Origin: Promethearchaeota archaeon
GTDB taxonomy: Archaea > Asgardarchaeota > Lokiarchaeia > Sigyniarchaeales > SOKP01
Reading direction: 5' to 3'
Assembly (NCBI GenBank): GCA_016840085.1
Contig: JAEOTA010000004.1
Location: forward strand, 1 to 64,000
DNA: 64,000 bases
Shown here: in pieces, positions 6,003-57,425 of the stretch
Layout of the letters: every line of letters starts with the position of its first letter
Numbering within the stretch: position 1 is the first letter of the stretch
Program-made: the position numbers and the translations under genes
Notes under the pieces: generated by a model
Told to the model about the DNA's origin: nothing
What the model saw: the letters and a program-made list of their open reading frames with translations, nothing else
Databases searched by the model: none

Positions 6003-6239
6003 TTATCCTCCTGCTATTTCCCCGCTTATCTTTAATTAAGATAAGCTATGGGGAAGGATAACCACTTCACTTTCGCTAGTGATGATGGTCTCTGGCGTGG
6101 CTTTTTTTCCATTTACGAGAATACCAAAATATTTATCTTCCAATTTGAGTTCTTTTAACAAATTAGCTACCGTCATGGTCTTTTCAGGAGTAAATGTTTC
6201 ATATAAGCCTGTCTCTAACAATTCTGAAATTTGTTTTAT
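6003..6239 (-). CDS. Ubiquitin-like ThiS/MoaD/SAMP-family protein, interrupted by an intron: join(6048..6239, 6003..6017)
   Basis: Beta-grasp pattern TVANLLKELKL...ILVNGK...SEVVILPH. The missing IAGG-stop (ATA GCA GGA GGA TAA) lies in frame 30 nt downstream. Probable ATA start at 6239 behind a GGTGG Shine-Dalgarno; the ORF track uses TTG 6221. Confidence 0.88.
6018..6047 (-). other. 30-nt BHB-type mRNA intron
   Basis: Minus strand CCCC-AT^A-GCTTATCTT-AATTA-AAGATAAGC-GGGG-AA^A: 4-bp central helix, two 3-nt bulges, 9-bp intron stem. Cutting after the 2nd nt of each bulge restores P-H-I-A-G-G-stop. Confidence 0.85.
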
Positions 6240-6452
6240 ATTAAACCACCTACAAAATTATTAATTATTATATATAATAATCTTGATCATATTTAATATT
6301 ATTTCCTTAGTCTAATATGTCTTGGATAATCTTAAATTCATAGTTTTTGAAGATTCATTTTCAATTTAGAAATTAACATCACCAAATTTTTTATTTTTAA
6401 TTTAATTTCAATACATAGTTTTTGTTTTTTTCAAAATTGAGGAGATCATACA

Positions 6453-8105
6453 ATTATTGAAGAGGAAGAATTCATAGATTACACAGAATTTTTAGAAAGA
6501 CTTAAAATATCTGAGTCTAATATTAGAAAAATTGATGATCCATTAGAGAGAAACAAATCAATAAAAGAGATTGTTGAAACCTCTATTAATTTTTCAAATG
6601 AGATTGCTCAGTCTGGAGAATTTTTTGAGGCTGGAGAATTTCTATATTCTGCTGCTCATATTATAGAAAGTCTTGACTTTGTCGAAAGTATTAAATTATA
6701 TAATCAAATTATTGAATTTTATAAACAACAAATTATTAATTATAAATTACAAGCTAGATTACATGAAATAGCAGAATTATACTTAAGGATTGCAGATTTA
6801 TATCACGAGAAAATTAAAGATAATCAACTAGAAAAAAAAAATATCCTAAACAGTATAAAATTCCTTAAGCAAGAAAGTAGATTATTAAAAGAGTTTAATG
6901 AAACACGGAAGCTTGCTCAAAATTACCAAAACATTGCCGAATTATATTTGAAATCAGAAGATTTTAAAAATGCTATTAAATTTTTCGGAAAAGTTATTGA
7001 GATTTCAAAATTATACAGTTATTATGATATGCTATCCTTCTCATATCAGCAGATTGGGGCATGTTATGAAGAAATTGATGATTATAACACTTCCCAAGAC
7101 GTAATTTTAGATGGAGTAGAATTTTTCTCAAACTTAGCTACAGAATTAGAGGAAAAAAATGATAATTTAACATTAACACAAATTTATCAAATATTAAAGA
7201 ATCTTCATAAAATTTTGGATGAAGAAGATAAATATATAGCTTTCTCTAAAAAAGAAGCTGGTGCTTATATCGATTTAGCAGAAAGATTAGAAAAAAAAAA
7301 GGAGAATTATCATAAGATCGCAAGATATTATCGTGGTGCAGGTTTGTGCTATAAGGATATAAAAAATAATTTAATCGAATGTGCTTCTTGTTTTATATTA
7401 GCAGGTAACTTTTCAGAAAAAATAAACGATTTACACCAAGCTGCTATAAACTTTTTTGACGGAGCCAACATGTTTAAGGAATTGAATAATCTTGAAATGA
7501 CTTATAAACATTTTATTAAAGCAGGAGACAACTTTTGGAGAATGGGAAGTATAAATGAATCCACCGAAAGTTATTTAAATGCATATGATATTGCTGTTGA
7601 AGGAGGATTAGAATTTAATAGTTATGGAATATTCAATCAAATTGTTAGAGGATTAAACAAAATCGCCGAAGAAGGCTTAAAAAATAAACAGTTTTATACA
7701 GCAGCTTCTCTTATCTTAGAAAGTATAAAATTTTATGAACAATTGGATACAGCAAAAGATTTTCTATTAAGAGAAATGGTCAATAATCTTTATCGCTATT
7801 ACTATAGAGCAGCAAATCTAAAGAAAATTGGATATTCTCATCTAGTTCAGAGCTATGTTTTAGCTTCGATATCATGCATTTTAAATGGTAAATTGGATAA
7901 AGCATGGAAAGTAATCTCGGAGATTAAACCTGAAGGAATAACTGTTAAAAAATACATCGAAATGATAAAAATCATGATTGAAAGAGTTTCTGATGGAAAA
8001 GAAGTAGAACTAAATAATTTTTCTTATGATTTAAGAAGATTAATTGAAAGCTCTGAAGAAATTATGTTTCTTTTAAAATTATTTAAAGGCTTTAAAATAA
8101 AATAG
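6453..8105 (+). CDS. Alpha-solenoid (TPR / alpha-SNAP-like repeat) protein, ~550 aa
   Basis: The frame of ORF 6948..8105 stays open 165 codons upstream to ATT at 6453 behind GAGGAG. Helical repeats such as ARYYRGAGLCY, ASCFILAGNFS, YKHFIKAGDNF. Confidence 0.75.
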   Translation: MIEEEEFIDYTEFLERLKISESNIRKIDDPLERNKSIKEIVETSINFSNEIAQSGEFFEAGEFLYSAAHIIESLDFVESIKLYNQIIEFYKQQIINYKLQARLHEIAELYLRIADLYHEKIKDNQLEKKNILNSIKFLKQESRLLKEFNETRKLAQNYQNIAELYLKSEDFKNAIKFFGKVIEISKLYSYYDMLSFSYQQIGACYEEIDDYNTSQDVILDGVEFFSNLATELEEKNDNLTLTQIYQILKNLHKILDEEDKYIAFSKKEAGAYIDLAERLEKKKENYHKIARYYRGAGLCYKDIKNNLIECASCFILAGNFSEKINDLHQAAINFFDGANMFKELNNLEMTYKHFIKAGDNFWRMGSINESTESYLNAYDIAVEGGLEFNSYGIFNQIVRGLNKIAEEGLKNKQFYTAASLILESIKFYEQLDTAKDFLLREMVNNLYRYYYRAANLKKIGYSHLVQSYVLASISCILNGKLDKAWKVISEIKPEGITVKKYIEMIKIMIERVSDGKEVELNNFSYDLRRLIESSEEIMFLLKLFKGFKIK

Positions 8106-8159
8106 ATTTGCCTTATTTATCCTTTTTAATAATTAATAAAATTATTACTATAACATTTT

Positions 8160-8822
8160 ATGAAGGAAATTGAAAAAATTATTTTAAGTTTTGATTTAGA
8201 TAATACTTTAATAGATAATAGAAAAGGGATTGTAAATTCATTTAATAATGCTCTTAGAAAGTTTAATATAGCGGAGATTGCTAAAGAGAAAATTGAAAAA
8301 ATGATTGGAACTCCTTTAGAAGAAATGTTTGCACAAGTTACTAAAATAAATCCTTCATTACTTGCTTCTGCTTTTCGTGAATTTTATGGGAAAAAGGGGC
8401 TATATCAATCTAAATTATTATCAGGTGTTAAAAACAAACTATATGAATTCGAAAAAGAAGGATTCACTTTAGGTATTATAACTTCTAAAAAGCAAGAAAT
8501 GGCAGAAAGGGTTGTAAAATATTTAGAAATTGACCACTTTTTTGACTATATCTTAGGAGAAACCGAGGAAAGAAAATCTTTGGGAAAATTGGATCCAAAA
8601 TTAAAAGAAATATTGGTAGAAAAGTATCCTGATCATAAGATTATTGTGATTGGAGATCACCCTAAAGATATAATGCTTTCTAATAATTTAGATTGCCCTT
8701 TTATCGGGGTACTCACAGGAAATCATTCAGCAGATCAATTAAAGCAAAATAAGATGGATAAAATTCTAATTTTAGATTCATTGAAAGCATTAACTATTGA
8801 TAAAATATTAAGCCTAATTTAG
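8160..8822 (+). CDS. HAD-family hydrolase (phosphoglycolate phosphatase-like)
   Basis: FDLDNTL motif I, ITSK motif II, IGDHPKD motif IV. Confidence 0.9.
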   Translation: MKEIEKIILSFDLDNTLIDNRKGIVNSFNNALRKFNIAEIAKEKIEKMIGTPLEEMFAQVTKINPSLLASAFREFYGKKGLYQSKLLSGVKNKLYEFEKEGFTLGIITSKKQEMAERVVKYLEIDHFFDYILGETEERKSLGKLDPKLKEILVEKYPDHKIIVIGDHPKDIMLSNNLDCPFIGVLTGNHSADQLKQNKMDKILILDSLKALTIDKILSLI

Positions 8823-56056: not shown

Positions 56057-56333
56057 TTTCTATTACTAATTTTTCTTTTTTAATTACTTTTTCTTCCCAC
56101 GATCTTTTGTATTGCATAGTTATTGTAGCCTTCCCGCGCGTAAGAGATAAAAAACTGAAATGTTCTGTGCCGCCTCCACCCAGTTTTGGACTTAATGGCA
56201 TATAGGATTTTTCCTTAAGCTCTACAAAACTAGTATCAAAATCTGCATCCCAACGATAACCTGTACTCGGATTGGAACCTAAAGAAACCTTAAAAACATC
56301 TCCAAGCTTTACTTTAATTATCTTTTGATTCAT
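56049..56333 (-). CDS. Chagasin-family (I42) cysteine peptidase inhibitor
   Basis: SNPSTGYRW, LGGGG, YKRSWE loop motifs. Confidence 0.9.
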   Translation of the reverse strand: MNQKIIKVKLGDVFKVSLGSNPSTGYRWDADFDTSFVELKEKSYMPLSPKLGGGGTEHFSFLSLTRGKATITMQYKRSWEEKVIKKEKLVIEII

Positions 56334-56366
56334 ACTTAATTTCTATATAAAAATTATCAAATTTTA

Positions 56367-57172
56367 ATTTGAAGACTAAAAAAATTTTTATGAGAATCTA
56401 TACTTTATTCCAAAATTCGATTAACTAAAAAGACAGATATAATAGTAGAATCCTATGAAATATAAGGCTATTATTTTTGATCTATTCGGTACTCTTGTCG
56501 ATAATTATTCAGTTCAGGGATACAACAGATTATTAACAGATATGGCTTCAGCTCTCGAATTACCTGGTAAAGATTTTTCAAAACTTTGGCGTGATACAAC
56601 TTATGAGCGCGGAATTGGGACTTTTAAAACCACCGAAGAAAGTATAAGATATATTTGTAATATACTTGAAGTATCTGTAAGTGATGAAAAAATGAGGAAA
56701 TGTGAACAGATCAGAATAGAAAGCATCCGCAAAGCTTTAACTCCTAAAAATGGAGCTATTGAAATTTTAAAAGGTCTAAGGGGATTAGGATATAAGATTG
56801 GATTAATAACTAATTGCTCTGCTGATGTACCTCTTTTTTGGAAAAATACAGAATTCTCTCATTTCTTTGATGTTACAATATTCTCCGCTTCAGTAGGTTT
56901 GAAAAAACCGGACTCTCAAATATATAATTTAGCATGTGAACAATTAGGAGTCGAACCAGACACATGCCTTTACATTGGAGATGGTGATAGCAATGAACTC
57001 TCGGGAGCTTCTCAGTTTGGTATGGATGCTGTTATGATCCGTGATCCAAATGAGATAGATCCCTATCATTTAGTTGAGATAAATTGGAATGGTCGAATAA
57101 TTGAATCTTTCATGGAGATAATGGATCTGATTTAAAGACTAAAAATATTTTTATGAGATTCTATACTTTATT
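56367..57172. repeat. 43-bp imperfect direct repeats (56367-56409 and 57130-57172) flanking the HAD gene
   Basis: ATTT(G/A)AAGACTAAAAA(A/T)ATTTTTATGAGA(A/T)TCTATACTTTATT, 40/43 identical. Confidence 0.85.
56455..57135 (+). CDS. HAD-family hydrolase
   Basis: FDLFGTL, LITN, KKPD, YIGDGDSNEL. Confidence 0.9.
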   Translation: MKYKAIIFDLFGTLVDNYSVQGYNRLLTDMASALELPGKDFSKLWRDTTYERGIGTFKTTEESIRYICNILEVSVSDEKMRKCEQIRIESIRKALTPKNGAIEILKGLRGLGYKIGLITNCSADVPLFWKNTEFSHFFDVTIFSASVGLKKPDSQIYNLACEQLGVEPDTCLYIGDGDSNELSGASQFGMDAVMIRDPNEIDPYHLVEINWNGRIIESFMEIMDLI

Positions 57173-57231
57173 TTTTATCTTATTCGGGATTAAATTTAAT
57201 TTTTAATTACGAATTAAGATTAATCATCTCA

Positions 57232-57425
57232 GCCAAGGTGGCGTAGCCCGGTATGCATTGGAGCTTTTCCACTGATGGGTAAGAACGCACCAGATCCATC
57301 GGATTTACCGAGAAAGGTGATACTGAAGATCTGGGTATCGAGAACTCTGGTTGTTTCAACCATTTTCGATAAGGTTCAAAGAAAAAGCCCAATTTTGAGT
57401 TTTTTTGGGACTCCCTCCCTTGGCA
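57232..57425 (+). tRNA. tRNA-Phe(GAA) with four introns; exons 57232-57251, 57283-57293, 57322-57342, 57373-57380, 57412-57425
   Basis: Joined exons give GCCAAGG TG GCGT AGCCCGGGA ACGC A CCAGA CT GAA GA TCTGG GTATC GAGGG TTCAAAT CCCTC CCTTGGC A (74 nt, all stems Watson-Crick). Each junction has a 4-bp helix with 3-nt bulges. Confidence 0.92.

Follow-up and report, generated by a model that had tools for sequence, protein, structure and literature searches.

Bulge-helix-bulge (BHB) introns, substrates of the tRNA endonuclease, are well known from tRNA and rRNA. As archaeal mRNAs spliced by this endonuclease, reviews name cbf5 and HVO_1309 (PMC10485636), the only two archaeal genes for which the literature searched documents such introns in a coding sequence. 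For Asgard archaea, up to five inserts per tRNA gene have already been published (PMC11291895; bioRxiv 10.64898/2026.10.13.758758), coding genes being unmentioned in both reports. In the searchable literature on BHB introns of Asgard archaea or Lokiarchaeota, we found no report of such introns in Asgard coding genes. Here, we analyzed a window of 64,000 nucleotides (nt), that is, C19:1-64000 in an assembly of 4.68 Mb (89 contigs; ~29% GC; estimated completeness, 98.8%), in which five short inserts occur, four in a tRNA-Phe gene and one in a gene for a ubiquitin-like (Ubl) protein. With a probability of about 0.8, we interpret the five inserts as one class of ~30-nt BHB introns residing in tRNA and protein-coding genes of this Lokiarchaeia-type genome, which would be spliced by the endonuclease EndA together with RtcB; these cells probably splice mRNAs as well as tRNAs. 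The first-pass annotation, made from the DNA letters alone, had spoken of a lineage close to eukaryotes, and homologues of the window proteins indeed bear the labels Promethearchaeota, Lokiarchaeia, or Lokiarchaeota.

In the proposed mechanism, folding of the transcript would pair four nucleotides of the exon with four of the intron (helix H), next to two bulges and the hairpin of the intron; in each bulge, EndA would cut 3′ of the second nucleotide, and the exons would be joined by RtcB, cleavage and ligation themselves being steps that we infer from the sequence. All five inserts proposed in the first-pass annotation, with lengths of 31, 28, 30, and 31 nt in the tRNA and 30 nt in the mRNA, were confirmed at the positions listed below, and in each of them H has four of four pairs (Watson-Crick or G-U) with a 3-nt spacing at both sites. 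The architecture described there was also recovered in the tRNA inserts, which are composed of one bulge nucleotide, an inner segment of 21–24 nt, four nucleotides complementary to the upstream exon, and two bulge nucleotides; as had been noted as well, three of the five inserts carry AA at the 3′ end. The single insert in a coding sequence lies in the following setting:

6003-6221, minus strand: MoaD/ThiS-type Ubl gene; exon 1, 6221 (or further upstream)-6048; exon 2, 6017-6003, encoding I-A-G-G-stop.
6018-6047, minus strand: putative Ubl intron of the BHB type (HBh′), 30 nt, phase 0, at a His/Ile codon boundary, with an in-frame TAA; delimited by comparison and fold.
5991-6063, minus strand: conserved Ubl fold; outer helix in which the coding sequence GGUUAUCCUU is paired with the GG-stop-3′ untranslated region (UTR) sequence GAGGAUAACC.

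The minus-strand open reading frame (ORF) at 6036-6221 scores 27.5 bits with Pfam ThiS (cut-off, 22.5; E = 4.7e-6). Unspliced, the frame reads ..VVILPH-SLS-stop, the stop being the fifth codon and lying inside the hairpin, and 30 nt beyond the His codon the same frame continues with I-A-G-G-stop. Removal of the 30 nt restores ..ILPH-IAGG, and solely after this removal does the protein with its ThiS-family domain possess a C-terminal diglycine. The insert folds with an H of CCCC/GGGG, a bulge AUA, a hairpin with a perfect 9-bp stem (h′) and a 5-nt loop, and a 3′ bulge AAA. Excision would remove the in-frame TAA, fuse ..ILPH to IAGG-stop, and create the C-terminal diglycine required for modifier activation, and the unspliced mRNA would give only a truncated ..ILPH-SLS protein, which is expected to be non-conjugatable.

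Among the 255 Ubl homologues retrieved, the majority terminate in ..ILPH-IAGG-x, and several end just past ILPH with unrelated tails (SFA, RFF, SST, or SSS). One homologue (P0076) has 10 residues (RSSHIEKIAE) precisely between ILPH and IAGGC, which are most simply read as a stop-free 30-nt intron translated by the gene caller, in line with the earlier prediction that 30-nt members lacking a stop would look like 10-residue insertions. In the orthologous sequences of same-family species (84 resolvable loci), an insert of exactly 30 nt occurs at the same codon boundary in 8 loci, and LPH-IAGG is continuous in 76. Seven of the eight belong to the same genus, this genome's locus included, and one to another genus. 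The two closest relatives by Ubl protein identity (92–93%) are without the insert, which points to repeated precise loss or lateral spread.

The fold core, consisting of H, the 3-nt 5′ bulge, and the 9-bp/5-nt hairpin, is common to every intron-bearing Ubl sequence. The outer helix encloses H, the hairpin, the 3-nt 5′ bulge, and a 9-nt 3′ bulge, with a minimum free energy (MFE) of -31 kcal/mol. In six own-genus sequences, this ~10-bp helix, formed by the V-I-L codons and the GG-stop-3′UTR, is continuous into H, with an enlarged 3′ bulge after H′; in the MFE fold of G030, H and the outer helix are shifted and a 1-nt bulge remains. Over the seven distinct sequences, 88% of the fold cells are paired, compared with 46–54% when the partner is slid; changes on both sides occur in 11 of the 24 pairs, and none of 500 shuffles attained the observed values. 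Within H, a compensatory change converts CCCC/GGGG to CCUC/GAGG (Pro codon CCC to CCU), and the outer helix, which is paired in 80% of the cells, has compensatory changes at three pairs and is formed anew by other residues in G034, G144, and G030. The sequence after GG varies with the outer helix, being a direct stop, Ser-stop, or Asp-Phe-stop. Moreover, the insert boundaries obtained from the ortholog comparison coincide exactly with the cuts predicted by the BHB rule, and across the eight intron-bearing loci the IAGG codons 3′ of the insert show synonymous differences only, the read-through tails being divergent (SLS, SFA, RFF, and SQS). As a separate observation, intron-bearing alleles mostly have GG-stop, and intron-less orthologues have GG plus one residue (I, V, F, K, N, and others; L003-L031); the RNA fold seems to constrain the Ubl C-terminal tail, the stop and 3′UTR being paired with the V-I-L codons in the intron-bearing alleles.

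It might be argued that the Ubl insert is not spliced at all, and that a terminator-like hairpin element, or one resembling a miniature inverted-repeat transposable element, truncated the gene, leaving a GG-less or decaying protein with IAGG as a remnant. The in-frame stop, the annotation of the truncated ORF by gene callers (P0001, P0004-5, P0007, and P0009-10), and the A/U-rich 3′ region, which together with the hairpin could look like a terminator, would all agree with such an event. Nevertheless, we regard it as quite improbable, in view of the IAGG maintained in eight species, the exon/intron and exon/3′UTR covariation that preserves the helices, and the exact 30-nt length in 8/8 loci next to unconserved tails; moreover, a search of the genome with this Ubl query gave a single match and no second copy, and similar inserts lie inside catalytic motifs of single-copy core genes (RNase HII and EF-2). 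Programmed translational hopping over the 30 nt, of the phage T4 gene 60 type and with no RNA splicing, appears highly improbable. Although the gap is in frame and a stable stop-containing hairpin is located just past the take-off region, the take-off and landing codons are unmatched (CAU before the gap and GAA at its end, with no CAU-like landing codon), the stop does not immediately follow the take-off codon, and inserts of the same architecture occur in tRNA genes, where translation is irrelevant. The conserved 4-nt exon–intron pairing with 3-nt bulges is, furthermore, a signature of EndA and not a bypass signal. Collectively, the Ubl covariation, the boundary match, and the synonymous-only IAGG speak strongly against both a dead insertion and a bypass signal.

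With regard to the 5′ end of the Ubl gene, its homologues begin ~8–11 residues further upstream (..IKQISELL..), where the present frame is open (..FNIKQISE; window positions 6222-6245, minus strand) and has no ATG, GTG, or TTG; translation may thus begin at a non-canonical codon or from the TTG at 6221.

The other four inserts are found in the tRNA-Phe locus, the ends of which were set by eye at GCCAAGG (start) and CCTTGGC-A (finish):

57232-57425, plus strand: tRNA-Phe(GAA) gene with four introns; the spliced 74-nt sequence is a perfect cloverleaf.
57232-57251, 57283-57293, 57322-57342, 57373-57380, and 57412-57425, plus strand: tRNA-Phe exons; the last base is the discriminator A.
57252-57282, plus strand: intron 1, 31 nt, in the D-loop; H GCCC/GGGT; bulges GGT and AAG; inner helix (h′) 2 bp.
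57294-57321, plus strand: intron 2 (28 nt), interrupting the anticodon stem on its 5′ strand (30/31 or 31/32); H CACC/GGTG; bulges AGA and ATA.
57343-57372, plus strand: intron 3 (30 nt), interrupting the T-stem on its 5′ strand (51/52); H ATCG/CGAT; bulges AGA and AAG; outer helix (h) 5 bp.
57381-57411, plus strand: intron 4 (31 nt), interrupting the T-loop (59/60); H TTCA/TGGG; inner helix (h′) 7 bp; outer helix (h) 2 bp.

These inserts were identified by enumeration of BHB-compatible intervals across the locus, and the four-intron solution was ranked first by an exon-threading search; a three-insert parse would require three G-U pairs in the anticodon stem. When the four inserts are removed from the 194-nt locus, the remaining 74 nt have all stems paired as tRNA-Phe(GAA) (ARAGORN), and four excisions would be required to produce this tRNA. 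Intron 1 is equally readable as 29 nt (57253-57281), with H slid by one pair, in agreement with the exon-threading search. The GC content is 59% in the exons and 33–43% in the introns, and direct reading reveals a T/A-rich box ~25–30 nt upstream and a T-run after the gene. In scans of the window, the unspliced gene was missed by ARAGORN (with and without -i) and by Rfam at E up to 1, the sole tRNA found by these programs being an intron-less tRNA-Gly(UCC) at 50892-50963.

Same-genus orthologues of the tRNA-Phe gene contain two (31 and 30 nt), three (28, 30, and 30 nt), or four inserts, with gene lengths of 134, 161, 168, or ~200 nt (loci L103-L115) and a near-identical mature sequence. The alignment of G034 to the tRNA-Phe gene omits query positions 113-142, corresponding to the site of intron 3, which is probably absent from that genome. 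Since the number of inserts varies around a near-constant mature tRNA, the four introns are real and evolutionarily labile. Compensatory changes were also seen among the genus orthologues in the mature anticodon and T stems.

Inserts of the same kind interrupt other coding genes of this genome. RNase HII has a 30-nt insert with an in-frame TAA inside its universal catalytic motif, GIDEAGR-(10 codons)-GSVLGP; the GxGxxG loop of an E1-like ThiF protein is split by 30 nt, GVGALG-(10 codons)-CEIAK; and EF-2 carries 30 nt in its N-terminal G domain, just ahead of DEEQERGITI. In addition, 30-nt inserts split a Ras-family GTPase (Pfam Ras positions 1-34 versus 38-157) and an AMP-phosphorylase-like gene, which is a single gene by Pfam. 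The further mRNA examples on which the first-pass annotation had staked its proposal thus exist as five hairpin inserts, all of them containing stops, so that at least six coding genes of this genome appear to carry ~30-nt BHB-type inserts. Those of RNase HII, E1, EF-2, and Ubl each have a 23-nt inner hairpin and three or four of four pairs in H; these four were found without selecting for 30 nt (EF-2 through a screen of 18–45 nt), and all are exactly 30 nt.

When ORF joining was screened together with a 9-bp hairpin descriptor, 29 cases were obtained at 30 nt versus 18 in the mirrored control, the largest excess among the frame-keeping lengths of 27–42 nt; it was smaller at 33 nt (26 versus 19) and 42 nt (37 versus 28), and ORF joining with a strict BHB gave no excess. 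According to a Pfam check of nine long-ORF hits, two (the Ras-like GTPase and the AMP-phosphorylase-like gene) are clearly single genes, one is probably so (Fer4+CCG), one is ambiguous, and five are adjacent genes (ChlD/CobN, TrpD/TrpC, PorA/PorB, CD36/HTH, and nitrilase/RagA), which were rejected as introns. The first of these five, the only other hit within the window, is a hairpin-like 30-nt segment at 25276-25305 (plus strand), joining ORFs of 663 and 1270 codons that are ChlD-like (AAA+, VWA) and CobN, respectively. In the window screen, the Ubl insert was the single top match, and a second mRNA intron was not found. Three of the seven tRNA-free GC-rich islands of the window (~9147-9242, 41421-41543, and 44095-44182), considered as hidden RNA genes, lie inside long ORFs. 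The gene beside Ubl (4954-5940, plus strand) is convergent with it and ends ~60 nt from it; the product looks like RNase Z, as judged from the metallo-beta-lactamase fold and the HxHxDH motif read in the translation. RNase Z is the processing enzyme of tRNA 3′ ends.

Intron lengths in tRNA genes were surveyed throughout the genome by exon-threading, covering ~30 loci of ~46 expected genes, with some wrong parses (e.g., 16+14 and 36+25+54); at the Rfam threshold, the genome yields only 21 tRNA matches, many of them 101–105 nt long. Credible tRNA introns in this census were distributed as follows, by length with the number of introns in parentheses:

17 nt (1), 22 nt (1), 25 nt (1), 28 nt (3), 29 nt (1).
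30 nt (5), 31 nt (4), 32 nt (2), 33 nt (1), 39 nt (1).

About three quarters of these ~20 introns are 28–33 nt long, the outliers being 17, 22, 25, and 39 nt; the lengths have a sharp mode near 30 nt and are not uniform. In this incomplete census, the narrow length range expected for the other tRNAs is therefore present, and together with the further mRNA cases it supports the interpretation as a structure-defined intron class in both tRNA and coding hosts. Alternatively, all of these might be real BHB introns of ordinary, varied length, constituting no class, with the uniform size and the sharing between tRNA and mRNA due to small-sample coincidence. Such a view is compatible with the outliers, with the unsettled loci of the census, and with a median of 22–23 nt in other Asgard families (bioRxiv 10.64898/2026.10.13.758758). 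However, the Ubl, RNase HII, E1, and EF-2 inserts all have exactly 30 nt and a 23-nt inner hairpin without length selection at 30, about 75% of the credible tRNA introns fall within 28–33 nt, all eight Ubl introns have 30 nt despite diverged sequence, and the ORF-joining excess is largest at that length; we hold a coincidence to be improbable. Elsewhere in the genome, a 151-nt locus (G000:C32:24375-24525, plus strand) threads with a low score as a tRNA with a UCA anticodon and about three inserts. An interrupted tRNA-Sec is a possible identity, the low score being due to the standard 7/5 acceptor/T arms that the model assumes.

As for the splicing enzymes, the genome has one RtcB gene (C83:46555-47862) and one EndA gene (G000:C79:3618-4223), the latter coding for 202 residues with N- and C-terminal domains and having as its closest solved relative the alpha4 enzyme of M. 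jannaschii. A second EndA paralogue was not found with PF01974 and PF02778 (to E 10) or with the EndA protein itself as query in this 98.8%-complete assembly, where a very divergent beta subunit is conceivable. The first-pass annotation had envisaged a broad-specificity endonuclease; at residues ~41-52, the present EndA has a loop that exceeds that of M. jannaschii by 5 residues and falls 6 residues short of the Crenarchaea-specific loop of S. tokodaii. Most Asgard genomes have a two-subunit EndA (PMC5829648; bioRxiv 10.64898/2026.10.13.758758), and the published Asgard type is an (alpha-beta)2 enzyme with an L1 loop (PMC5829648), to which the present EndA, having one homologue, does not belong.

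Several of the results weigh against the assignment of the five inserts to one class of spliced introns. Cleavage of relaxed motifs has been tied to (alpha-beta)2 or epsilon2 enzymes (PMC5829648), an association with which the single, apparently alpha4-like EndA is at odds. A flanking helix of at least 2 bp, as in the classes hBHBh′, HBh′, and hBH, is present in tRNA introns 1, 3, and 4 and in the Ubl intron, but the helices beside the bulges of tRNA intron 2 are only 1 bp on each side. On its 3′ side, the Ubl motif is looser than the strict form, with a bulge of 9 nt instead of 3 in the MFE fold and no adjoining outer helix; because of this relaxed 3′ bulge, the Ubl motif is of the HBh′ type. 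In the whole genome, the bare BHB descriptor gave no excess over the mirrored-motif control (reversed sequence). In this descriptor search, of the kind that the first-pass annotation had proposed, real and mirrored counts were equal at every length from 12 to 100 nt and at every stringency; given these equal counts, such a search is powerless in a 29% GC genome. The excess at 30 nt in the ORF-joining screen is also modest. What sets the inserts beyond chance is the product of their removal (the perfect cloverleaf and the restored IAGG end) together with the comparative evidence. The sequences, the folds, the covariation, the restored products, the presence or absence among relatives, and the EndA and RtcB genes were directly established.

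A more extensive reading, which we advance as speculative and rather doubtful, is that the ~30-nt inserts constitute one propagating mini-intron family, the 1 + 23 + 4 + 2 nt being set either by how they spread or by the splicing enzyme, in a step that measures them. Many coding genes in a lineage neighbouring the eukaryotes would then have been colonised, mRNA splicing by the tRNA machinery would be routine and obligatory in a prokaryote, and splicing of Ubl and E1 would gate ubiquitin-like conjugation, as that of XBP1/HAC1 gates a transcription factor. If splicing as such is true, an Asgard archaeon would depend on post-transcriptional mRNA splicing for core functions. One would then have to ask how a cell lacking a nucleus completes splicing before translation, and the system would offer a concrete case to test how intron-bearing genes were tolerated before eukaryotes. 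Because of the inserts, proteins are also truncated, split, or padded (10-residue pseudo-insertions) by gene callers, and Asgard tRNA genes stay hidden, resulting in distorted inventories.

The BHB intron of the pre-mRNA of cbf5, a pseudouridine synthase gene in which the intron has a conserved site, was reportedly also described by Watanabe in 2002 and by Yoshinari in 2006. As known from Crenarchaeota (PMC2738675), it has in common with the present coding-gene inserts a short intron in the coding sequence, a relaxed BHB, a tRNA endonuclease thought to perform the cut, and patchy gain and loss. In contrast to cbf5, the host described here is a ThiS-family Ubl gene, outside the cbf5 family, in the Asgard phylum, a single genome has several interrupted coding genes, all with inserts of 30 nt, and the Ubl splice would decide the functional diglycine end. 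The HVO_1309 mRNA of Haloferax volcanii (PMC7714728; PMC10485636) is likewise an archaeal mRNA with a BHB, which is cut by the endonuclease and spliced in RNA-seq. There, however, a single euryarchaeal gene is concerned, outside any uniform-size family shared with tRNA genes.

Multi-intron tRNA genes are said to have been described in Thermoproteales by Sugahara in 2008. With the multi-intron tRNA genes of Asgard archaea (PMC11291895; bioRxiv 10.64898/2026.10.13.758758), the tRNA-Phe gene shares several non-canonical BHB introns per gene, many of which are in the D-arm, the failure of standard tools to detect them, and gain and loss between close relatives. Those reports deal with Atabeyarchaeia, Freyrarchaeaceae, and Jordiarchaeaceae and a median of 22–23 nt, whereas the present genome is of the Lokiarchaeia type with a mode near 30 nt.

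In eukaryotes, HAC1 and XBP1 are cut by the endonuclease IRE1, ligated through an RtcB-type or tRNA ligase pathway, and regulated by stress, the XBP1 intron being 26 nt. They resemble the Ubl case in having a non-spliceosomal and very short intron that is defined by RNA structure and alters the C-terminal reading, and differ from it in the endonuclease, which is IRE1 there and would be of the EndA/TSEN type here, stress regulation being a feature of HAC1/XBP1. Collectively, the tRNA part of our findings falls within a published phenomenon, and the mRNA part would extend archaeal BHB introns to new coding genes.

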